DNA of 64,000 nucleotides from Candidatus Doudnabacteria bacterium. Lineage in GTDB: Bacteria > Patescibacteriota > Doudnabacteria > UBA920. Positions within the stretch are counted from its first letter, which is position 1. Every line of letters begins with the position of its first letter. The notes under the pieces are model-generated. The model had not been told where the DNA came from and did not search any database. It saw only the letters and a program-made list of their open reading frames with translations. Both the position numbers and the translations under genes were made by a program. Where the stretch lies: NCBI GenBank assembly GCA_963837465.1, contig CAWINB010000004.1, forward strand, positions 586,853-650,852, in the 5' to 3' direction. Below, one piece after another: positions 1,945 through 50,920 of the stretch.

Positions 1945-1964
1945 CCCTCTTTAGTGTCTGGGGT

Positions 1965-1991
1965 TAGTGTCAAGGGTCACCCTTGACACTA
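1965..1991. repeat. 27-bp palindromic repeat element copy A (TAGTGTCAAGGGTCACCCTTGACACTA), preceded by partial TTAGTGTC duplication
   Basis: perfect 13-1-13 palindrome, 21 bp after gnd stop, between convergent gnd and GT4 genes. Confidence 0.85.
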
Positions 1992-5401: not shown

Positions 5402-5709
5402 ATGGAGACTTTAAGGGAAAAAGCAATTGAATTTATAAAAAAAGTGCCGCGGGGCAAAGTTGTCAGCTACAGCCAGGTAGCCGCGGCCTGCGGCAGCCCG
5501 CGCGCTCCCAGGCAAGTGGGGGGATTTTGCGCGGGCTTGGCGCTTTGGACGGCCAGATCCCGTGGTGGCGCGTGGTCAATAACAGCGGTATAATCAGCAT
5601 AAAGGGCAACTGGACGGCTACAAAGGAACTACAAAAACAGTTGCTGGTTAAAGATGGGGTGGAAGTCGGTGACGACTTTACAATTAATATGGAAAAATAC
5701 AGATATTAA
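5402..5709 (+). pseudogene. alkyltransferase-like protein (ATL; Ogt-fold DNA-binding protein lacking the active Cys), disrupted by a 1-nt frameshift in a G6 run
   Basis: two overlapping ORFs (5402-5593, 5527-5709) together reproduce E. coli Atl/YbaZ order: VPRGKVVSYSQVAAACGSPRAPRQVGG / ILRGLGALDGQIPWWRVVN (PWWRVV vs PWHRVV); frame break at GGGGGG 5518-5523. Confidence 0.7.
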
Positions 5710-5710
5710 C

Positions 5711-5780
5711 TGAAATAATGAAATAAACAGAAATAAGGAAATATTTCCTTTATTTCAATCTATTTCTTGCGAAAGAATAT
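5711..5780. repeat. AT-rich imperfect palindrome (core 16-bp perfect palindrome AAGGAAATATTTCCTT flanked by GAAATAA/TTATTTC repeats)
   Basis: read directly; lies between ATL stop and msrA start. Confidence 0.6.
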
Positions 5781-5783
5781 TTT

Positions 5784-6308
5784 ATGGAAATTGAAACAGC
5801 GGTATTTGGTGGAGGATGCTTTTGGTGCACCGAAGCCGTCTTTCAAAATTTAAAAGGTGTATCGTCCGTGCTTCCGGGGTACGCCGGCGGCAGCGCTCCC
5901 GACCCGACTTACGAGCAGATTTGCGGCGGCGATACCGGACACGCGGAAGTCAGCAAAATAGAATTTAATCCGCGAATAATTAAGTTTACGGATTTATTAA
6001 ACGTTTTTTTCGCCACGCACGATCCCACAACTTTAAACCGGCAGGGGAATGACGTGGGCGACCAGTACCGCAGCGTGATTTTTTACACATCGCCGGAGCA
6101 GAAATTACAGGCCGCACAATTTATAAGCGAGGCCCAAAAAGAATTTGACTCGCCCATAGTCACCCAAGTCCAGCCCCTGGATAAATTTTATGTTGCCGAA
6201 AATTACCACCAAAATTATTTTAAAAACAACCCCGGCAACCCCTATTGCCAAATGGTCATAGGCCCCAAACTCCAAAAATTCCGCGAAAAGTTCGCGGACT
6301 TGATTTAG
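5784..6308 (+). CDS. msrA: peptide methionine (S)-sulfoxide reductase
   Basis: GGGCFWC active-site signature near N-terminus. Confidence 0.9.
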   Translation: MEIETAVFGGGCFWCTEAVFQNLKGVSSVLPGYAGGSAPDPTYEQICGGDTGHAEVSKIEFNPRIIKFTDLLNVFFATHDPTTLNRQGNDVGDQYRSVIFYTSPEQKLQAAQFISEAQKEFDSPIVTQVQPLDKFYVAENYHQNYFKNNPGNPYCQMVIGPKLQKFREKFADLI

Positions 6309-6434
6309 AACCTGTTTGAAAAATAAATCGCGGCCCGGAGTATTTTTAAAATAGGTTTTAAGTAACCCTGTCAAAATCAGCTAAACCGGGCGCCCGCTTC
6401 TTGAGGAGCCGATTTTTTGCTATAGTAGCCCTAT

Positions 6435-6836
6435 ATGAATTATTTTAACAGCCATAAAGTCAGGGTTTTTTTGCAATGGCTGGTTTTGGCTTTGCTGGTA
6501 GCGGTCGTGGCCATAACTTTGTACCAGACAGTAAATAATTTTGAAACTCTGCGTTTGAGGGGCAATATCCAGCCGCGCCGCCGCCATAACCAGGCACGGT
6601 TGGCAGCCAATCCGGACCAGATCCAGGGCTGGATGACTTTTCGCTACATAAATCTGGTTTTCCGCCTGCCGCCGGATTATTTAAAAACCCAGCTAATCAT
6701 CAGCGACACCCGTTATCCTAATTTATTGCTTGGCAGCGCGGCCAAAGAGCAAAAGATTAGCTCGGCCCAAATAATCGCCAAAACTATCGCCGCGGTAAAA
6801 AATTACCTTAGCGCCCCGCCAAAACCTCCCGCGTAA
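6435..6836 (+). CDS. hypothetical membrane-anchored protein
   Basis: single N-terminal TM helix; no motif. Confidence 0.45.
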   Translation: MNYFNSHKVRVFLQWLVLALLVAVVAITLYQTVNNFETLRLRGNIQPRRRHNQARLAANPDQIQGWMTFRYINLVFRLPPDYLKTQLIISDTRYPNLLLGSAAKEQKISSAQIIAKTIAAVKNYLSAPPKPPA

Positions 6837-6854
6837 TCTAAGAGTCTGTTTAGC

Positions 6855-7448
6855 ATGAACCACATCCTTCAAACATTGCTGGCGTATGTTTTGCTTTACA
6901 AATACCCCAGCATTTTTATTATCACTTTTTTGGGCGCTTTCGCCCTGCCGCTTCCTTCCGGCAGCGTGCTTATGGCCGCCGCGGCGTTTTCACTGCAGGG
7001 GTATATGAATTTTTACCTGGTGCTGTTTACCGGAATTTTGGGCAATATGGCCGGCGACAGCAGCGGTTACTGGCTGGTGCGGCTTTATGGCATCAGGATT
7101 ATGGACAAGCTCGGCCTGGGAAAATTTTTTAAACAAGAAAGGCTGGATGCCGCGCGTGAGCAAATAGACAAACACCCCATTCCGGCTATTTATTTGAGCC
7201 GGTTTATGACAGCTATAGCGCCGGCCGTCAACGTTATTTCCGGCCTGACAAAATTGCCCTATAAAAGATTTTTGCTGTTCGAAGGTTTGGGCGAAGTCAC
7301 CGAATGTTCCGTCTTTTGCGGCATTGGCTGGATTTTTGGCGCCAACTGGCAGTATGTGGATCAGTTTTCCGGCCGCCTGTGGATTTTGGCCGTGGCAGGG
7401 GCGCTGGTATCCATTTTGTTTTGGAGGTTGATATTAAAGGGGAAATAA
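6855..7448 (+). CDS. DedA/VTT-family membrane protein
   Basis: conserved DedA core (GxxxGNMAGDSSGYWLVRLYG, YLSRFMTAIAPAVNV) and 4-5 TM helices. Confidence 0.75.
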   Translation: MNHILQTLLAYVLLYKYPSIFIITFLGAFALPLPSGSVLMAAAAFSLQGYMNFYLVLFTGILGNMAGDSSGYWLVRLYGIRIMDKLGLGKFFKQERLDAAREQIDKHPIPAIYLSRFMTAIAPAVNVISGLTKLPYKRFLLFEGLGEVTECSVFCGIGWIFGANWQYVDQFSGRLWILAVAGALVSILFWRLILKGK

Positions 7449-7466
7449 TTCATAGCGGTCCCATTT

Positions 7467-8072
7467 ATGACTCAATTCCAACCCGGAATCCATTTATCCG
7501 AAGCCGATCCCGTTCTGGCTAAAATTATTTCTCAAATTGAACTGGCGCCTCGAAAACCCCACAAGCGTTATTTTGAAGCGCTCACCGTGGCGATTATCAA
7601 CCAGCAGCTTTCCACCAAAGCCGCGGCCGCCATAGTAAAAAAATTCGTCGCGATTTTTTCCGGAGTCAAATTTCCCACTCCCGATCAAGTCCTAAAAAAG
7701 CGTGACGCTTCCTTGCGCAAAGCCGGGCTGTCGTTCCAAAAAATCGGCTACATAAAAAGTCTGGCCAAATTAATTCGGGAGAGGAAAATAGACTTTAAAA
7801 AATTTGGAAAAATGGATGATGAACAAATCGTCCAGACCTTAATTTTAGTCAAAGGCATAGGCCGCTGGACAGCCGAAATGTTTTTAATGTCCGCTTTGGG
7901 CAGACCCGATGTCTTTAGCCACGGCGATTTGGGCCTGAAAAACGCCATTAAAAAATGGTACAAACTGGACATGAAACTCCATCCCAAAAAATATCACCGC
8001 CTGGTGGAAAGCTGGAGCCCGCACCGCACCTTAGCGGCAAGATACCTGTGGGCGAGCCTTAAAATCAAGTAG
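7467..8072 (+). CDS. HhH-GPD DNA glycosylase (AlkA-like 3-methyladenine DNA glycosylase II)
   Basis: helix-hairpin-helix LVKGIGRWTAEMF followed by catalytic D in GDLGLKNAI; stop codon TAG lies inside the palindromic repeat. Confidence 0.75.
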   Translation: MTQFQPGIHLSEADPVLAKIISQIELAPRKPHKRYFEALTVAIINQQLSTKAAAAIVKKFVAIFSGVKFPTPDQVLKKRDASLRKAGLSFQKIGYIKSLAKLIRERKIDFKKFGKMDDEQIVQTLILVKGIGRWTAEMFLMSALGRPDVFSHGDLGLKNAIKKWYKLDMKLHPKKYHRLVESWSPHRTLAARYLWASLKIK

Positions 8073-8095
8073 TGTCAAGGGTGACCCTTGACACT
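8070..8095. repeat. palindromic repeat element copy B (TAGTGTCAAGGGTGACCCTTGACACT)
   Basis: same element as copy A with centre C/G swapped; first 3 nt are the alkA-like stop codon. Confidence 0.85.
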
Positions 8096-8392
8096 CGGCC
8101 TCACCACTTAAGAGTAAGAACAAAATTTAAAACAAACTGATTTTACGCACAAGAAAAAAAGTTTAATAGGTCTGCTGGGGTGGTACGGGGTCGCGGCTAC
8201 CGTAGGCGCTTATATTTTTGTCAGCTTTTCGCTGATTTCCTCCACAAGCTGGCTGTATCAAATTTTAAATTTTACTGGCGCTTTGGGCATTACTGTAGAA
8301 ACCTATTACAAAAAAGATTACCAGCCGTTTTGGCTGAACTTAATTTGGATGATAATTGCTTTTGTGGCAATTTTGAGCATAATCTTTCGCTA

Positions 8393-8433
8393 AAAAATCC
8401 CCCTGAAGGCAGCCTTCAAGGGGATTTTATTTT
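8393..8433. terminator. bidirectional rho-independent terminator (serves msrB on minus strand)
   Basis: hairpin ATCCCCCTGAAGG-cagc-CTTCAAGGGGAT flanked by A6 upstream and TTTTATTTT downstream. Confidence 0.65.
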
Positions 8434-8457
8434 GATGCTGTAATAGCGTAAGGAATC

Positions 8458-8865
8458 TTATTCTTGTTTGCTCATCAGCAAACACGCGCCGTTTACGCAA
8501 AAGCGTTTTCCGGTGGTTTGCACAGGGCCGTCGTCAAATACGTGGCCCAAATGAGAGCCGCATTTACTACAGACTACTTCCGCGCGGGTCATGCCGTATT
8601 CGTCGTCTTTGTGAAAATCCACGGCTCCAGCAATGGCCTGGTCAAAGCTCGGCCAGCCGGTGCCGCTGTCAAATTTGGCATCGGACTTAAACAGTTCCTG
8701 GCCGCAAACGGCGCAGGCGAACATTTTTCCCTTTTCGTGGACATCCAAAAGCGGACTGCTAAAGGGCGCTTCCGTGCCTTTTTCCCGCAGTATTTTGTAT
8801 TGCCCGGGCGTGAGTTTTTTCTTTAATTCTTCTTCGTTAACCTGCATTTTTGTATCATCGGACAT
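8458..8865 (-). CDS. msrB: peptide methionine (R)-sulfoxide reductase
   Basis: two CxxC zinc motifs (CAVCGQ, CSKCGSH) and catalytic C near C-terminus; ATG at 8865 has AAGGAG Shine-Dalgarno 8 nt upstream. Confidence 0.9.
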   Translation of the reverse strand: MSDDTKMQVNEEELKKKLTPGQYKILREKGTEAPFSSPLLDVHEKGKMFACAVCGQELFKSDAKFDSGTGWPSFDQAIAGAVDFHKDDEYGMTRAEVVCSKCGSHLGHVFDDGPVQTTGKRFCVNGACLLMSKQE

Positions 8866-11440: not shown

Positions 11441-12845
11441 ACATGGCCCCTATCTTTGAGACAGCCTCTAAAGGAGGACGGTACCCCAATTGCTGAAACC
11501 GGAGGGTTGCCCGGAAGCTGTACAAAGAGCATAAGCCTGCCACACTGACTTGATGACAATCGATATGACAGACTTAAGCGTTACGAGCATAGCTCAAATC
11601 AAGGAATTTCTAAAGGTCAATACAGCAATTAATTTTACCTCAGTTTCCAGAAAGGAGAAATATGAATGGATTAACAACGTCTTAAACAAGTTTGGCTATG
11701 TCCGGCTTAAAGGCAAAAAAGACAAGGGGCAGATTAAGGAATATATCCAACGGATGACCGGCATGTCGGGCAGACAGCTAAAACGACTGATTACCAACAA
11801 GAGAGGAAGTGGGTTAGTGGCCTTGTCCCCGAATTGGGGCAAGAAAAACCGGTTTGTTACTGTTTATGGCCCGGCAGAAATACTATTGCTGGCTGAAACC
11901 GATAATCTGCACCAACGAATGAATGCCCATGCCACCAAACAGATCCTAATGGCTGAATATGAAATATTCGGTGACGAACGGTTTAAAAGACTAAAAGATA
12001 TTTCCGTTTCCCATATCTACAATCTGCGAGTTAAAAGAATTTACACCAGCCACTCCACCACCTTTACCATAACCGATCCAGTAAGCACCCCGATTGGTAT
12101 TAGAAGAAGACCCGACAATATGGGCATTCCGGGCTATCTGCGGGTGGATACCGTGCATCAGGGCGACCGTAAGCTGGCTTTGGGCAAGTATGAGAAAGGT
12201 ATTTACCACTTAAACCTGGTGGATGAAGTCACCCAATGGGAAATGGTCTTCTGTGTGGAAACGATTTCCGAGCTGCATTTAAAACCCATATTTGAACAGT
12301 TGCAGCAAATGTTTCCCTTTACAGTAATTAACTTCCACTCTGACAACGGTAGCGAGAACATTAATTACACGGTAGCTGATATTCTTAGAAGGTTAGTTAT
12401 TAAACAGACAAAATCACGAAGCAGGCACTGCAATGACAATGCCTTAGTGGAAAGCAAGAACGGCAGTGTCATCAGAAAGTATATGGGCTACACTCATATC
12501 CCGAAAACCTACGCGCAGGAGATTAACGAATTTTACCAGAAGTTTTTTAACCCTTACCTGAACTTCCACAGACCCTGCGGCTTTGCCACCACCACGGTTG
12601 ACCATAAGGGCAAGGAAAAGAAAAAATATGATATTTACTTAACTCCCTATGCCAAACTGAAGACTCTGGATAATTGGACACGCTACCTTGCCCCAGGACG
12701 GACGGAAAAACAACTGGATGACATCAGCACCGGCCACAGCCATAACGGATGGGCAAAACTTATGCAGGAAGCAAAGTCAGCAGTATTTAAAAACATTAAA
12801 CTTAAGGAACATCAAAAAATGGCCGCTGGCGGATAGGGGCCATGT
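11441..12845 (+). mobile_element. insertion sequence (~1.4 kb) with 14-bp perfect terminal inverted repeats ACATGGCCCCTATC
   Basis: IRL 11441-11454, IRR 12832-12845 (reverse complement identical); single DDE transposase ORF between them. Confidence 0.65.
11550..12836 (+). CDS. DDE-type transposase / integrase-core (rve) domain protein
   Basis: N-terminal HTH region; catalytic core HSDNGSE ... NDNALVESKNGS (D,D,E arrangement). Confidence 0.8.
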   Translation: MMTIDMTDLSVTSIAQIKEFLKVNTAINFTSVSRKEKYEWINNVLNKFGYVRLKGKKDKGQIKEYIQRMTGMSGRQLKRLITNKRGSGLVALSPNWGKKNRFVTVYGPAEILLLAETDNLHQRMNAHATKQILMAEYEIFGDERFKRLKDISVSHIYNLRVKRIYTSHSTTFTITDPVSTPIGIRRRPDNMGIPGYLRVDTVHQGDRKLALGKYEKGIYHLNLVDEVTQWEMVFCVETISELHLKPIFEQLQQMFPFTVINFHSDNGSENINYTVADILRRLVIKQTKSRSRHCNDNALVESKNGSVIRKYMGYTHIPKTYAQEINEFYQKFFNPYLNFHRPCGFATTTVDHKGKEKKKYDIYLTPYAKLKTLDNWTRYLAPGRTEKQLDDISTGHSHNGWAKLMQEAKSAVFKNIKLKEHQKMAAGG

Positions 12846-13141
12846 CTTGATTAGAAACTACTATCCACTTAATGCCGCTGGAAAAAATAGAAAAATCCAA
12901 ACAAAAAACCGAGATACGATTCTCGATTTTTTAGATGGTTGGGATGCCCGAAGGGGGTTGGACTGCCCAAGTTTCTCAAGCTGTGGCACAATATAGAGCT
13001 ACTTGGCTGTGAAGGATTGATGTAAACATTATATACTGCGCAGCTTGTTTTGCACTCGTTCCGATAAATATGTTATAATTAAAGCAACAATTTAATTGCC
13101 TAAACCTACTGCCGCAAGGCTTGGGCACGGCATAAAAACAT

Positions 13142-13245
13142 CGTGAAGCACGAAGACGGTCATCCGTCTTGCTTAATGCTTCACGGTGTTGCCAAGGGAA
13201 ACTTTGGTAGGCTCGCAAGAGCCGGGCAAGCGGGTGGCCCTTTTT
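13142..13245 (+). other. candidate structured RNA / multi-hairpin element upstream of bPH gene
   Basis: nested hairpin CGTGAAGCA[CGAAGACGG-tcat-CCGTCTTG]cttaaTGCTTCACG, then GGCTC-GCAA-GAGCC GNRA-loop hairpin and GGGC..GCCC + T5. Confidence 0.3.
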
Positions 13246-17490: not shown

Positions 17491-17525
17491 AAAAATCCCT
17501 TGCCGGTAACCGGCAAGGGATTTTC
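17491..17525. terminator. bidirectional rho-independent terminator between convergent genes
   Basis: A5-TCCCTTGCCGG-taa-CCGGCAAGGGA-T4. Confidence 0.7.
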
Positions 17526-22836: not shown

Positions 22837-23874
22837 GTGGAAAATCAAAATTTTAAACCTGATGGAGCGGGAAAAAAAAGTAAAATTTTACTTTTTGCGC
22901 TCTTGGCTTTTGATATTCTGCTTTTGGTAACCTGTATTTTGCAAATAGTCTGGCCGCGCGTCAGTTTTAATAACAGCAGTTTTTTAAATCCTAAGGGTTT
23001 AATAGCTCAGCAGGAACGCGCGCTCATAGTAAAGGCCGTTTTAATAATGCTCATTGGCACAATTCCGGTTTACATTCTGATTTTTTTCTTTGCCTGGAAA
23101 TACAGGGCCGACAGGACGGAAACAAAATATTCTCCGGATTTGGAGGGTAAGGCATTGGGCGGAATCGCGCTTTGGGCGCTTCCCGCTTTAATTATTTTAG
23201 CGCTCTCGGTCATAAACTGGAAAAGCACCCACTTGCTGGATCCCTCTAACACAATCGCTTCCGGCGTGCCGCCCATAACCATAGAGGTTGTCGCTTTGCA
23301 ATGGAAATTTTTATTTATTTATCCGAAACAAAATATCGCTACCGTAAATTTTATTGAATTCCCTCAGGGTACGCCCCTGAATTTTGAGCTAACCGCGGAC
23401 GCGCCGATGAGCTCATTTTGGATTCCGCAGCTCGGCAGCCAAATTTACGCCATGGCCGGAATGCAAACACATCTAAACCTTATTGCCGACCAGCCGGGAG
23501 ATTTTAAAGGTATGGATACGGAAATAAACGGGACGGGCTTTTCGGGCATGAAATTTATTGCCAGGTCAACTTCGCGGGCGGACTTTGACCAATGGGTGGC
23601 ATCGGTAAAACAATCCGGCGCCAAGCTTAATCTGGATGATTACAATCAACTGGCCGAACCCAGCCAGAACAACCCCCAGGCTTACTATTCGTCCGTCGAT
23701 CCCGGTCTGTATGATACAATTATGATGAAAAATATGATGCCCATGACCCAGGCGCGAATGGAGCAGATGAGCAGTTTGGGATTGGGTGCCGCGAATTCTT
23801 CCGCAACGACTATGCCGGGAATGAATATGGGCAGTTCGTCGCCAATGAACATGCAGGGGATGGACATGAAGTAG
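22837..23874 (+). CDS. cyoA: cytochrome bo3-type quinol oxidase subunit II (no CuA ligands) with Met-rich C-terminal tail
   Basis: COX2 fold blocks WKFLFIYP, FWIPQLG; CuA Cys/His replaced (FSGMKF); tail with multiple MxM/MxxM. Confidence 0.8.
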   Translation: MENQNFKPDGAGKKSKILLFALLAFDILLLVTCILQIVWPRVSFNNSSFLNPKGLIAQQERALIVKAVLIMLIGTIPVYILIFFFAWKYRADRTETKYSPDLEGKALGGIALWALPALIILALSVINWKSTHLLDPSNTIASGVPPITIEVVALQWKFLFIYPKQNIATVNFIEFPQGTPLNFELTADAPMSSFWIPQLGSQIYAMAGMQTHLNLIADQPGDFKGMDTEINGTGFSGMKFIARSTSRADFDQWVASVKQSGAKLNLDDYNQLAEPSQNNPQAYYSSVDPGLYDTIMMKNMMPMTQARMEQMSSLGLGAANSSATTMPGMNMGSSSPMNMQGMDMK

Positions 23875-23912
23875 AACCTATTTTTCAAATAGGTTCTAAG
23901 TAGTCCATCTTA

Positions 23913-25979
23913 TTGGCTGGAAAAACTATGGAACATTTTCTTTTAGGAAAACTTACCTGGGACGCGCTGCCGCACGAGTGGTTTACCATTGGCGGGACGG
24001 TTGCCATTGGCATTGGCGGCTTGTTTGTCGCGATTCTGTTAACCTGTCTTAAACGCTGGAAATGGCTATGGAAGGAATGGCTTACGTCCACCGATCCCAA
24101 AAAAATCGGGGTCATGTACATTGTTGTGGCCTCGCTGATGCTGTTTCGCGGCGCGGTTGACGCGGGAATGATATGGCTGCAACAGTCGCTTTCCGTTGGA
24201 ACATCGCAAGGATATTTAAACGCCGACCACTTCCAGCAAATTTTTACCGCGCACGGCTCCATTATGATTCTTTTTGTGACCATGGGTTTTTTGTTCGGCC
24301 TGATGAACTATATTATCCCCCTGCAAATTGGCGCGCGCGATGTTGCCTTTCCGCTTCTAAATACTTTGAGTTTCTGGCTGTATGTCGCCGGGGCCGTGCT
24401 GATTAACCTGTTTTTTGTGGTTGGCGGACAATTCGCCGCCGCCGGCTGGCTGTCCATGCCGCCGCTGTCGGAACTGGCCTACAGCCCGGGCGTGGGCGTG
24501 GATTATTGGATATGGAGTTTGCAAATCTCCGGCCTGGGCAGTTTGCTGTCCGGAATTAATTTTCTTGTAACCATCGTAAAAATGCGCGCTCCCGGAATGA
24601 CGCTGATGAAAATGCCCATGTTCGCCTGGACTACTCTTTGCAGCATGATTCTGGTTATTTCCGCTTTCCCTATTCTTACCATGACCCTTATCCTGCTTTC
24701 CCTGGACCGGACTTTGGGCATGCATTTTTTTACTTCCAGTTTTGGCGGCAATCCCATGATGTACGTCAATTTAATTTGGTCGTGGGGACATCCGGAAGTT
24801 TATATACTCATGATTCCGGCCTTTGGTATTTATTCGGAGGTCGTAACTACCTTCAGCAGGAAAAAATTGTTCGGCCACACCGCGGCTGTGGCAGCGACTA
24901 TTGGCATTACGCTTATGTCTATGCTGGTCTGGCTGCACCATTTTTTTACCATGGGCGCGGGAGCCGATGTAAACGCTTTCTTCGGCATCATGACCATGAT
25001 TATCGCCATTCCCACGGGCGTGCTGGTCTACAATTGGCTGGCGACTATGTTTAGGGGACGGATTACTTTTGCCACACCTATGTACTGGTTTATGGGTTTT
25101 GTCTGTACTTTTACCATGGGCGGCATGGCCGGCGTGCTGATGGGTATACCCGGGGCGGATTACCTGCTGCACAATACTTTATTTTTAGTGGCGCATTTTC
25201 ATACCATGGTCATCGGGGGCGCCCTGTTCGGGATTTTTGCCGGCATTACCTACTGGTGGCCCAAGGTCACGGGGTTTCGGCTGAACGAACGGATTGGCAA
25301 ATATGCTTTTTGGCTTTGGATAGTCGGATTTTTTACCTCGTTTTTACCGCTCTATATTCTGGGTTTTATGGGAGCTACCAGGCGCATGGACCATTACGAC
25401 CCTTCCACCGGCTTTCAACCTCTGTTTATAATCGCGGGATGCGGTTTTGTAATTATTTGCTGCGCCGCCGCCGCGCAAATCTGGCAGATTATAGTTAGCG
25501 TTATGGAACGCAAAGCAACCGTTGATACTACCGGCGACCCGTGGGATGGACGCACGCTTGAGTGGGCAACGTCATCCCCGCCGCCGATTTACAATTTCGC
25601 CATTATACCTACAGTAACTACGCGGGATGCTTTTTGGGAAGCCAAACAATCAAGTGTCATTGCGAGCGCGGCCGAAGCAATCTTTCCATCGACGGGAAAG
25701 ATTGCTTCGTCGCCAGGTAAAGCCCTGGCTCCTCGCAATGACACTCGGCTGGTCTATGAAGACATCATGATGCCAAAAAATACGGCCATGGGGATATACA
25801 TATCCGGTTTCGTTTTCCTGATGGGTTTCGCCCTGGTCTGGCATATTTGGTGGCTGTTGGTTGTGGGATTAATCGGCGCGGTTGTTTGCGTTATAGTTCG
25901 CGCGTTTGAGGAAGAAACGGAATACGTAATCCCGGCGGCGGAAGTGGAGAGGATGGAAAAAGATAGTAAAAGAAAATAG
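23913..25979 (+). CDS. cyoB: heme-copper quinol oxidase subunit I
   Basis: 12+ TM helices, WGHPEVYILMIPAFG and WAHHMF-type (HHFFTMG) signatures. Confidence 0.9.
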   Translation: MAGKTMEHFLLGKLTWDALPHEWFTIGGTVAIGIGGLFVAILLTCLKRWKWLWKEWLTSTDPKKIGVMYIVVASLMLFRGAVDAGMIWLQQSLSVGTSQGYLNADHFQQIFTAHGSIMILFVTMGFLFGLMNYIIPLQIGARDVAFPLLNTLSFWLYVAGAVLINLFFVVGGQFAAAGWLSMPPLSELAYSPGVGVDYWIWSLQISGLGSLLSGINFLVTIVKMRAPGMTLMKMPMFAWTTLCSMILVISAFPILTMTLILLSLDRTLGMHFFTSSFGGNPMMYVNLIWSWGHPEVYILMIPAFGIYSEVVTTFSRKKLFGHTAAVAATIGITLMSMLVWLHHFFTMGAGADVNAFFGIMTMIIAIPTGVLVYNWLATMFRGRITFATPMYWFMGFVCTFTMGGMAGVLMGIPGADYLLHNTLFLVAHFHTMVIGGALFGIFAGITYWWPKVTGFRLNERIGKYAFWLWIVGFFTSFLPLYILGFMGATRRMDHYDPSTGFQPLFIIAGCGFVIICCAAAAQIWQIIVSVMERKATVDTTGDPWDGRTLEWATSSPPPIYNFAIIPTVTTRDAFWEAKQSSVIASAAEAIFPSTGKIASSPGKALAPRNDTRLVYEDIMMPKNTAMGIYISGFVFLMGFALVWHIWWLLVVGLIGAVVCVIVRAFEEETEYVIPAAEVERMEKDSKRK

Positions 25980-26035
25980 GTTCTAATAGGATCGGCGCTC
26001 ATAGGAATATCCTAATATCCAATATTATAAACCAA

Positions 26036-26635
26036 ATGGCAATTGATACAAATCAACAAACGATAAATAATTCTGCGCATCATGTCGACAAAACCATCTT
26101 CGGGTTTTGGGTCTACTTGATGACGGATTTGATAATGTTCGCCGCGTTGTTTGCCTGCTACGCGGTGCTGCGGACAAATACCTTTGGCGGTCCGGGTGCC
26201 GGACAACTTTTAAGTTTAGACGGCGCGCTGGCGGAAACTTTGATATTGCTCGCCAGCAGTTTTACCTGTGGCTTGGCAATGCTGGCGGTTCATAAAGGCG
26301 ACAAAAAACAGGCGCTGGTTTGGTTTGGGGTAACAGTGCTTTTGGGGCTTTTGTTTTTGACCCTGGAATTGCGCGAATTTTCCGGACTTATAGCCGGCGG
26401 CAACAGCTTTACCAGCAATGCCTTCCTGTCATCCTTTTTCGCGCTTGTGGGCACGCACGGGCTGCACATATCCATTGGCTTATTATGGATGCTGGTTTCC
26501 ATGGTTATGGTTTGGCGCCGCGGCCTTACGCCGGCCATTATAAGCAAGCTTACGCGCTTAAGTTTATTCTGGCATTTTTTGGATATTGTCTGGATTTTTA
26601 TTTTTACCATTGTATATTTATATGGGCACATTTAA
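26036..26635 (+). CDS. cyoC: quinol oxidase subunit III
   Basis: 5-TM subunit III pattern, C-terminal HFLDIVWIFIFT. Confidence 0.8.
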   Translation: MAIDTNQQTINNSAHHVDKTIFGFWVYLMTDLIMFAALFACYAVLRTNTFGGPGAGQLLSLDGALAETLILLASSFTCGLAMLAVHKGDKKQALVWFGVTVLLGLLFLTLELREFSGLIAGGNSFTSNAFLSSFFALVGTHGLHISIGLLWMLVSMVMVWRRGLTPAIISKLTRLSLFWHFLDIVWIFIFTIVYLYGHI

Positions 26636-26954
26636 ATTATATTTAACAGGATTTGCGGCATCCATCATACTCACTCTGGCGGCATATTTCGCCGTGGCCG
26701 CGCATATTTTAAGCGGTTCGATGCTGATTGCCGCTATTATGGCGCTTGCGATTATTCAGCTCATCGTCCAGTTGATATTTTTCCTGCATTTGGGCAAAGG
26801 ACAGGATTCAACCTGGAATTTGGTGGTGTTTTTTTCCACAGTCACGCTTGTGTTAATAATTGTCGTAGGCTCCCTCTGGATTATGAACCACTTAAACTAC
26901 AATATGACCCCCCAGGACATCAATAATTATATGAGCAGCCAGGACGGGATATAA
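26622..26954 (+). CDS. cyoD: quinol oxidase subunit IV
   Basis: 3-TM small subunit immediately after cyoC; ATG at 26622. Confidence 0.6.
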   Translation: MGTFKLYLTGFAASIILTLAAYFAVAAHILSGSMLIAAIMALAIIQLIVQLIFFLHLGKGQDSTWNLVVFFSTVTLVLIIVVGSLWIMNHLNYNMTPQDINNYMSSQDGI

Positions 26955-27041
26955 AAGAATTGCGGGATATTCAGATATTGCGGATATTGCCGACAGCATA
27001 ATATCCTAATATCTAAAGTATTTATTAATGTCTGGTAACGT

Positions 27042-27923
27042 ATGTTTAGACTTTACTACCACCTAACCAAACCCGGAATAATTTACGGCAATGCCATAAC
27101 TGCCATTGCCGGGTTTTTTTTGGCTTTAAATTCAAATGAATATTTAGTGTCAAGGGTGACCCTTGACACTAAACTTTTTTTTGCGATGCTGGTTGGGCTG
27201 TCTTTTATAATCGGTTCTTCCTGTGTTTTTAACAATGTCTGGGACGGGGATATTGACGCAAAAATGGAGCGGACAAAAAAACGGGCAATGGTTACCGGAG
27301 AGATCGGCAAAATATCGGCGATTATTTTTGCGAGCATATTGGGTTTGCTTGGCGCGTTCATCTTAGGCCTGCTCACTAACCCCTTAACTCTAATCGTCGC
27401 CCTGCTGGGCATGTTTTTTTATTTGATTTTATACACTCCGCTGAAGCGCAAAACCGCATACGGTACTTTAATCGGCGCGATCGCGGGAGCTACGCCGCCC
27501 GTTGTTGGATACGTTGCCGTCACCAATAATTTTGATACCGCGGCATTGCTGCTGTTTTTTATTTTGGTGTTTTGGCAAATGCCGCATTTTTACGCCATTG
27601 CCATCCGCCGGCTGGATGAGTATAAAGCCGCTTCAATTCCGGTACTGCCGGTTAAGGAGGGTATACATAATACAAAAATAAAAATGCTCGCGTACATTGC
27701 CGCGTTTATTTTAGCCACCGCGGGGTTAACTTATTTTAAATATACAAGCTATATGTATTTAGTTGTTATGATTTTACTCGGGCTATATTGGTTGTGGATT
27801 GGAGTTAGTGGTTTTAAAAAAACATCCGATGATAACAAATGGGCCAGCAAAATGTTTTTGTCGTCGCTTATAATCCTGACCTTGTTTTCGGTTGTCGTTT
27901 CATTTGGAACTCGTTTGCCATAA
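27042..27923 (+). CDS. cyoE: protoheme IX farnesyltransferase (heme O synthase) carrying in-frame palindromic-repeat insertion
   Basis: UbiA-family motifs NNVWDGDIDAKMERT and second Asp-rich region; 9 TM. Confidence 0.85.
   Translation: MFRLYYHLTKPGIIYGNAITAIAGFFLALNSNEYLVSRVTLDTKLFFAMLVGLSFIIGSSCVFNNVWDGDIDAKMERTKKRAMVTGEIGKISAIIFASILGLLGAFILGLLTNPLTLIVALLGMFFYLILYTPLKRKTAYGTLIGAIAGATPPVVGYVAVTNNFDTAALLLFFILVFWQMPHFYAIAIRRLDEYKAASIPVLPVKEGIHNTKIKMLAYIAAFILATAGLTYFKYTSYMYLVVMILLGLYWLWIGVSGFKKTSDDNKWASKMFLSSLIILTLFSVVVSFGTRLP
27145..27171. repeat. palindromic repeat element copy C, inserted in-frame inside cyoE/ctaB
   Basis: TAGTGTCAAGGGTGACCCTTGACACTA translated in gene frame as LVSRVTLDTK, an extra segment in the heme O synthase. 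Confidence 0.85.
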
Positions 27924-28340: not shown

Positions 28341-28407
28341 TTTTACAACAACTAAAAAGGATTCCCCTAGGTTGCCTAGGGGAATCCTTTTTAAATTTCA
28401 ACGATCT

Positions 28408-32914: not shown

Positions 32915-32953
32915 CAAGGGGCGCCCTTTGCCGCAAAGGGCGCCCCTTGTTTT
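32915..32953 (-). terminator. GC-rich hairpin terminator downstream of malic enzyme gene
   Basis: CAAGGGGCGCCCTTTG-ccg-CAAAGGGCGCCCCTTG with flanking T/A runs. Confidence 0.6.
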
Positions 32954-50823: not shown

Positions 50824-50850
50824 CAGTGTCAAGGGTCATCCTTGACACTG
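50824..50850. repeat. palindromic repeat element copy D (CAGTGTCAAGGGTCATCCTTGACACTG, one arm mismatch)
   Basis: between convergent PNPOx-like and CHAP genes. Confidence 0.8.
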
Positions 50851-50920
50851 AGTTAGATAAAACTAAAAACCATCCTCGGATGGTTTTTTAAATTCCTAAT
50901 TCCTGCTTCCTAATTCCATC

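Follow-up and report, generated by a model that had tools for sequence, protein, structure and literature searches.

Dispersed 27-bp palindromes of a Candidatus Doudnabacteria genome as a probable RAYT-associated repeat family

A stretch of 64,000 nucleotides from a Candidatus Doudnabacteria contig (CAWINB010000004.1, positions 586,853–650,852; hereafter the window) carries four almost identical palindromes of about 27 bp, all of them singletons and at least 6 kb apart, and the question raised by this locus is what kind of element they are and how they came to be dispersed. The palindromes are very probably copies of a repetitive extragenic palindrome (REP) family tied to a REP-associated tyrosine transposase (RAYT), an enzyme of the Y1 HUH type, in a host belonging to the candidate phyla radiation (CPR). 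The assignment to the REP class follows from the observation that in relatives of the window's genome the same palindrome brackets RAYT genes. Searched with the 23-mer GTGTCAAGGGTNACCCTTGACAC at a tolerance of three mismatches, the window yielded exactly four sites, three of them exact (1967–1989, 8072–8094 and 27147–27169) and one with a single mismatch (50826–50848), whereas the same search returned no site in 100 dinucleotide-preserving shuffles. The original prediction, made from the letters of the window alone, had likewise counted four near-identical copies and judged their chance recurrence negligible, and in this it was correct. The copies, together with a degenerate partial copy that adjoins one of them, are as follows.

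1952–1964, plus strand: degenerate tandem half-copy, TAGTGTCTGGGGT, directly upstream of copy 1
1965–1991, no strand assigned: probable REP copy 1, TAGTGTCAAGGGTCACCCTTGACACTA, perfect 13-1-13 palindrome between convergent genes
8070–8096, no strand assigned: probable REP copy 2, TAGTGTCAAGGGTGACCCTTGACACTC, opening with the TAG stop codon of a glycosylase gene
27145–27171, no strand assigned: probable REP copy 3, TAGTGTCAAGGGTGACCCTTGACACTA, in frame in a heme O synthase gene and read L-VSRVTLDT-K
50824–50850, no strand assigned: probable REP copy 4, CAGTGTCAAGGGTCATCCTTGACACTG, mismatched at one arm position and 6 nt past a stop codon

When the flanks are included, copies 1 and 3 each form a perfect 13-1-13 palindrome, TAGTGTCAAGGGT-S-ACCCTTGACACTA, while copy 2 has lost the outermost pair (...CACTC) and copy 4 has CAG...CTG feet and a single arm mismatch (GGGTCATCC). 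A consensus TTGACA can be read directly in each arm, and the central base of copies 1–4 is, in order, C, G, G and C. Folded as single-stranded DNA, each copy forms a hairpin of 11–14 bp with an energy of -11.4 to -14.1 kcal/mol (-11.8 kcal/mol for copy 1) and a z-score of -4.9 to -6.8. Lone half-sites are absent from the window with the sole exception of 1952–1964 beside copy 1, and the paired arrangement known as the REPIN doublet does not occur there. Three of the four copies fit an extragenic pattern near gene 3' ends: copy 1 separates a 6PGD-like gene (end 1944) from a convergent minus-strand glycosyltransferase gene (end 2004), copy 4 is likewise situated between convergent genes, beyond the stop of a PNPOx-like gene, and copy 2 coincides with a stop codon, leaving copy 3 as the one inside a coding sequence. 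This is the placement that the original prediction had described, and its view of the alternating C/G centre as a sign of insertion in either orientation also fits the data, in which the centre flips even between orthologous copies. Its remark that the sequence was unfamiliar has held as well, in that no Rfam family reached its gathering threshold at any of the four sites, the 21-bp core (present in 69 metagenome stretches) had no match in a viral contig collection, and no paper giving this sequence in a relevant context was found. A viral origin was rejected on account of the missing match in the viral collection. The window also contains three unrelated perfect 13-1-13 palindromes (17495–17521, 28360–28386 and 32919–32945; for example ATCCCTTGCCGGTAACCGGCAAGGGAT), each occurring there once, which may be terminators.

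Evidence for the partner enzyme was gathered from two sides, and loci from other genomes are denoted below by L numbers. On the side of the palindrome, 81 loci retrieved with it were searched by tblastn for Y1_Tnp genes, and in 11 of them such a gene adjoins a copy. Several loci have two copies 680–776 bp apart, and in L005, L021 and L023 the interval between the copies is an open reading frame (ORF) of 209–233 aa with the motifs YHxYNRG, LMPNHFH and AYIHLNP. Wherever both flanks of the Y1_Tnp gene could be read, the palindrome was present on both sides (seven of seven: L005, L019, L021, L023, L035, L066 and L067); of the remaining Y1_Tnp loci, L063 has a variant palindrome on either side of the gene, L055 and L081 are truncated where their contigs end, and L042 retains only a fragment of the gene. 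On the side of the protein, the choice of six RAYT homologues was based solely on protein similarity, their DNA being retrieved afterwards, and all six proved to be bracketed by the palindrome or by a lineage-specific variant of it. Three are RAYTs of the Doudnabacteria type (L082, L083/84 and L085/86), for which the flanking core is the same or differs by one or two bases. The other three are distant RAYTs with palindromes of their own but of the same build, namely TGTGGAGGGCGGCCCTCCACA in Yanofskybacteria, TATTGCAAGGAT-M-ATCCTTGCAATA in Saccharibacteria RAAC3, and TTRCAAGGGTGCCCCTTGYA in Paceibacterota, and only beside this last RAYT (L091) was a doublet of repeats seen.

The two arms of the repeat also change together. 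Across 23 RAYT-flanking copies 93.7% of stem cells pair, as opposed to 80% after shuffling (a value that none of 500 shuffles brought up to the observed one), five of nine pairs show changes on both sides, and slid controls pair at 37–53%. In L005 and L082 the stop codon of the RAYT gene is itself the TAG of the repeat. Gene order around the transposase is shared in part, purA lying upstream of the RAYT gene in L082 and L083/84 and guaB downstream of it in L083/84, while the RAYT neighbours in L005 and L085 are different ones. The term REPtron denotes such an arrangement, in which a repeat brackets its own Y1 transposase gene and changes along with it.

The Y1_Tnp gene beside the palindrome encodes a protein of 205–230 aa that scores above the family cut-off of Pfam PF01797 (Y1_Tnp) and has as its best NCBIfam family NF047646, REP-associated tyrosine transposase, with E values of 1e-9 to 4e-12. 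The HUH motif (NHFH) and the motif YIHxNP are invariant in sets of 9 and 27 sequences. An AlphaFold model computed from 27 homologues reached a predicted local distance difference test score (pLDDT) of 89, and its top match among solved structures was 4ER8, the E. coli TnpA-REP protein bound to a REP hairpin (E 7e-7), with the IS200/IS605 transposases 2XM3 and 2VJV ranked next. A fold search was needed for this clear result, since a sequence search of solved structures with one RAYT returned nothing and a profile gave marginal matches only. Judged by these sequence comparisons, the RAYTs of the present loci are distant members of the curated family, and some CPR RAYT genes already bear the automatic annotation "REP element-mobilizing transposase RayT". 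The 21-bp core is common to RAYTs that are only ~30% identical to one another.

Information on the history of the copies is obtained at orthologous sites, where two of the window copies could be compared with relatives. The genes concerned are the following.

7467–8072, plus strand: HhH-GPD DNA-3-methyladenine glycosylase gene (Pfam PF00730), with its stop codon supplied by copy 2
27042–27923, plus strand: heme O synthase gene (ctaB/cyoE-like, UbiA family; Pfam PF01040, E 8e-61), host of copy 3

Homologues of the former carry the name DNA-3-methyladenine glycosylase II and those of the latter heme o synthase or protoheme IX farnesyltransferase, and the named relatives of both belong to Candidatus Doudnabacteria and other Patescibacteria. 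The original prediction had proposed comparing orthologous loci for presence or absence of the element, and at both sites this comparison was informative. The heme O synthase of the window has eight extra residues in the loop between its first and second transmembrane segments (TM1 and TM2) that are lacking in 15 homologues, the closest of them 77–80% identical, and against two homologues copy 3 appears at the DNA level as one clean 24-nt gap that matches the palindrome, with no direct repeat flanking the insertion. At the 3' end of the glycosylase gene the site is polymorphic. In the window the TAG stop comes from the element; in the Doudnabacteria relative L094 (77% protein identity) a one-base variant copy follows right after a TAA stop; and in the relative L093 (78%) the copy is absent. 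Insertion at the one site and presence or absence at the other are documented. L093 has at 2616–2647, where the window has copy 2, an unrelated perfect 32-bp palindrome, ACAGGGGACACCTCTATAGAGGTGTCCCCTGT, and the notion that it represents a second repeat family was discarded, as it occurs only once in the data examined.

Turnover is also suggested in purQ, where an orthologous in-frame copy is found in three genomes (L002 1850, L009 587 and L068 1388) with 26 of 26 arm positions identical in an alignment that stands at 78% overall, a conservation of the arms that is partly by construction, these loci having been retrieved by exact match. The centre base of the three purQ copies is G, C and G, suggesting a hairpin-mediated inversion or a re-insertion. 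The copy in L094, which was chosen through the protein and is hence unbiased, has 26 of its 27 bases conserved. In comparisons with distant solved structures the corresponding loops of TrmD, GatA and TopA vary in size and present no neat eight-residue gap.

The position of copy 3 inside a gene is far from exceptional. Among the non-redundant copies with enough flanking sequence, 30 of 70 (~43%, in a sample obtained by exact core match) fall within ORFs no shorter than 150 aa, and among the host ORFs tested ten were identified as real genes by Pfam domain matches, encoding UvrA, TopA, RecG, an ABC exporter, MetRS, AsnB, GatA, UvrC, TrmD and MurB; further hosts are GuaA, PurQ, ProA and a UvrD-like helicase. 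The 27-bp repeat is often found in frame inside essential genes. Its reading frame there is strikingly uniform, 31 of 32 intragenic copies being read as (M/V/L)SRVTLD(T/I/M/S) and one, in L020, as CQGSPLT. The SRVTLD frame is open in both orientations of the element and the CQGSPLT frame in half of the orientations, and by our own calculation a split of 31:1 would have a probability of ~4e-5 if both were equally tolerated.

Beyond the window, the exact 23-mer was recovered in 12 stretches of a species-representative genome collection, 11 of them in three Patescibacteria metagenome-assembled genomes (MAGs): an unclassified MAG with eight copies and two Doudnabacteria MAGs with three and two. 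The twelfth lies on a contig of a rumen Prevotellaceae MAG (L003 7286–7308) with no RAYT nearby, and could reflect a mis-binned contig, transfer or chance. Copies of the Doudnabacteria type are mostly flanked by TA...TA, and in them TAG is conserved, paired with CTA on the opposite side, while the base preceding TAG varies; other subfamilies have CAA...TTG or different feet. Partial or half copies abut full ones at 12 of 77 copies and at 6 of 127 control positions. Such tandem partial copies are listed here by locus.

L007: 5590–5620
L006, L014, L035, L038, L055 and L063
Window: 1952–1964

In gatA of L063 a degenerate and a full copy stand side by side in one loop and are read VKGYPC...MSRVTLD. 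Several loci (L024/L059/L074, L019 and L018) have locus-specific palindromic flanks that extend beyond the consensus, for example GAAACCAA-core-TTGGTTTC and AACGCCTAA-core-TTAGGCGTT, and a preference of the element for inserting into the middle of hairpins already present is conceivable. In L051 (7533–7591 and 8299–8325; L053 is its reverse complement) a 184-aa gene of the Fic/DOC family has a copy on either side, the two being 750 bp apart, which resembles the bracketing of RAYT genes, and one of the L051 copies is nested in the loop of another as TAGTGTCAAGGGT-TA-[27-mer]-TA-ACCTTGACACTA.

A route by which such copies could arise is suggested by well-studied relatives of the enzyme. In the E. 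coli TnpA-REP and IS200/IS605 systems the transposase binds a hairpin on single-stranded DNA, cuts at its foot and rejoins the strands. By analogy, the 27-mer would fold into a hairpin of 12–13 bp when its DNA becomes single-stranded, the RAYT would recognise this hairpin along with the conserved TAG/CTA foot, and cleavage at the foot through the tyrosine/HUH site would be followed by rejoining of single strands. Copies would then be spread or renewed in trans from one RAYT gene, itself bracketed by the repeat, and this process may be continuing in the window's genome. They would persist where they do no harm, that is past stop codons (to which they sometimes donate a TAG), between convergent genes and within genes, where survival is presumably favoured by a single frame that is open both ways and that adds (M/V)SRVTLD(T/I) to tolerant loops. 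Some benefit to the host, for example from hairpins at mRNA 3' ends, might contribute to their retention.

The last point leads to an alternative that we consider unlikely, namely that the palindromes are host RNA elements, intrinsic terminators or stabilising hairpins at mRNA 3' ends, which are kept by selection and owe nothing to spreading by a transposase. It draws on the location of three of the four window copies at or just past gene 3' ends and facing convergent genes, on their stable stems, on the T-rich tails that render copy 2 (on the minus strand only) and copy 3 (on the plus strand) terminator-like, and on the view that REPs elsewhere are transcribed and act as RNA elements (PMC3733652). 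However, a T tail is missing from copies 1 and 4, which are not terminator-like; copy 1 received neither a promoter-like nor a terminator-like call, and copy 4, not called itself, has a distinct terminator-like hairpin downstream of it, with A- and T-run flanks (50865–50888). Furthermore, the ~43% of sampled copies that are intragenic occupy positions where a terminator would be harmful, and the bracketing of RAYT genes in every tested case is left unexplained. The terminator-like property could instead be incidental or serve a secondary function, compatible with a REP identity. Copy 3 together with a T8 run (CTTTTTTTTG, native TM2 residues) scores over 27143–27183 as an intrinsic terminator with a 14-bp stem, on the sense strand and ~100 nt into the gene, and this hairpin could attenuate expression of heme O synthase.

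The remaining alternatives fare considerably worse. The perfect dyad and the consensus TTGACA in each arm could belong to the operator of a dimeric regulator, in line with the protein-binding operators envisaged by the original prediction, or to a pair of outward promoters, but promoter scans found no -10 partner at 16–18 nt for any copy on either strand, none of the four copies precedes a gene start (all are after stops, between convergent genes or in a gene), and intragenic copies are numerous in other genomes, so that we regard this proposal as very improbable and had to abandon it; the likeliest binder of the element is the RAYT and not a regulator. It is just as improbable that the element is a minimal miniature inverted-repeat transposable element (MITE), composed of the two terminal inverted repeats of an IS630/Tc1-like DDE transposon that inserts at TA and duplicates it, a scheme to which the TA...TA flanks of most Doudnabacteria-type copies and the TA dinucleotides around the nested L051/L053 copy would conform. 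Here TAG/CTA belongs to the conserved palindrome itself and does not constitute a direct repeat, ctaB has gained 24 nt rather than 25 with no flanking direct duplication, no DDE transposase gene was seen beside the copies, the linked gene being a Y1 transposase, and the sole rve-like ORF of the window (11550–12836) is ~3.5 kb from the nearest copy. A TA target-site duplication was rejected on the first two of these grounds. The original suggestion of a mobile repeat of the REP/MITE type was correct in the main and has become more specific: the bracketing of RAYT genes, the insertion of copy 3 and the polymorphism at the site of copy 2 bear out its REP component, and the lack of a target-site duplication and of a DDE partner leaves the MITE component unsupported. 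Hardest of all to credit is a DNA uptake signal serving competence, similar to the DNA uptake sequence (DUS) of Neisseria or the uptake signal sequence (USS) of Haemophilus. Related genomes do have a short conserved motif in common, and inverted DUS pairs are known in Neisseria, but DUS and USS have a density of roughly 1 per kb whereas the four copies per 64 kb amount to ~1 per 16 kb, isolated single arms are absent from the window, and an uptake signal does not account for the tight linkage to RAYT genes.

Several observations weigh against the assignment to a RAYT-linked REP family itself. In comparison with REPtrons of the GTAG type, the present palindrome is fully symmetric, pairs its TAG with CTA and has no unpaired GTAG tag at the 5' foot. 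The copies flanking the RAYT gene in L082 and L083 look direct, so that inversion of the flanking repeats is inconsistent among loci, and the net change in length, +24 nt in ctaB, is +15 and -3 nt at two sites in asnB. As regards the protein, the scores of 35–46 bits for NF047646 are below the curated cut-off of 80 and hence short of equivalog membership, and matches of the nine-sequence profile to solved structures were confined to E values of 0.07–0.17. The wider loci were fetched by exact core match, which introduces an ascertainment bias into both the conservation and the 43% intragenic share. Finally, no RAYT gene is present within the 64-kb window, nor is any of the ~28 listed Doudnabacteria-type RAYT proteins located on the window's source contig, for which reason the window's genome may hold orphan copies. 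Some further data bear on this last point. A Logan contig of run ERR10755945, found via the glycosylase protein, is 100% identical to window positions 5467–8673, and the RAYT contig L082, on which the identical 27-mer brackets the RAYT gene, comes from the same run. The terminal 28 nt of L082 are also those of window positions 12835–12862, at the end of the rve-like ORF, an identity that suggests a repeated insertion sequence. The RAYT of L082 may belong to the window's genome or to a co-resident relative.

Some features of the window were noted independently of the repeat. The rve-like ORF (11550–12836) encodes 428 aa with a weak match, below cut-off, to rve, the DDE integrase core; an ORF at 12688–12996 overlaps it in another frame, and the region may therefore contain a frameshift. 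Just downstream of the rve-like ORF, positions 13097–13223 on the plus strand match the Rfam LOOT RNA (RF03000), scoring 67 bits where the gathering score is 46.4. Together with the heme O synthase gene, a heme-copper oxidase cluster that includes a COX3-like gene occupies ~22837–27923 in this CPR genome, and syntenic relatives of the cluster have COX1, COX3 and COX4, with a DNA methyltransferase gene between COX1 and COX3 in L088.

The kind of element described here and most of its behaviours have been described before, and the gain is one of scope and detail rather than of principle. REP/RAYT systems have so far been studied almost only in Proteobacteria, and their host range is here extended to the small genomes of the CPR, covering Doudnabacteria, Yanofskybacteria, Paceibacterota and Saccharibacteria. 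A 2013 survey placed tagged REPs in eight phyla, with CPR lineages not named among those listed (PMC3733652), and no description of REP/RAYT in CPR/Patescibacteria was found in the papers searched. It is possible, and we put this forward with considerable reserve, that this is the first characterised CPR REP/RAYT system and one that differs from its proteobacterial counterparts, with a symmetric hairpin whose core is retained across ~30%-identical RAYTs, SRVTLD copies in many essential genes, and orthologous copies that remain unchanged at synonymous sites between flanks ~22% diverged while their centre flips. If so, it would point to continuing RAYT-driven renewal, or to a function at the level of host DNA or RNA, in genomes thought to be stripped of such elements. 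Pairs of repeat and enzyme with covarying arms could be used to examine how a Y1 transposase reads its hairpin. For annotation and protein modelling in the CPR it is relevant that a 27-bp element can add eight residues to essential proteins, donate stop codons and put terminator-like hairpins into genes.

The closest known counterparts are the GTAG-type REPs that, with their RAYT genes, reportedly form REPtrons in E. coli, Pseudomonas and Stenotrophomonas, as related by Nunvar in 2010, Bertels and Rainey in 2011, Ton-Hoang in 2012 and Di Nocera in 2013 (PMC3733652). The palindromes described here have in common with these a short (27 bp) dispersed hairpin, placement at 3' ends or in convergent intergenic regions, the use of TAG as a stop, intragenic copies that include DNA-repair hosts (uvrA, uvrC, recG and a uvrD-like helicase gene) and topA, and a cognate Y1 HUH gene that is bracketed by a repeat changing with the transposase lineage. 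According to Di Nocera et al., GTAG REPs are located at 3' ends and between convergent genes, donate TAG stops, occur inside genes, notably those for DNA repair, and flank RAYT genes, although intragenic REPs, while known, are usually a minority (PMC3733652). In contrast, the present copies are singletons and not REPIN doublets, reside in CPR hosts with small genomes, are intragenic and in frame in ~43% of the sample, and have one 21-bp core serving RAYTs that are ~30% identical and that fall below the NCBIfam equivalog cut-off.

A different likeness, drawn from description and not from sequence, is that to the Rickettsia palindromic elements (RPE), which are also palindromic in-frame insertions adding a tolerated peptide. 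RPE-1 elements are longer palindromic insertions, and RPE-4 and RPE-6 are REPs of the CGTC type, a class without association to a transposase gene (PMC3733652), whereas the element considered here measures 27 bp, contributes 8–9 residues and is linked to a RAYT. Finally, with the IS200/IS605 family (IS608, ISDra2) the system shares the Y1 HUH fold and a gene flanked by hairpins. It differs from that family in that two of the Doudnabacteria-type RAYT loci have purA as their common upstream neighbour, and in that the same palindrome stands on both sides of the transposase gene and is also dispersed on its own, far from that gene.

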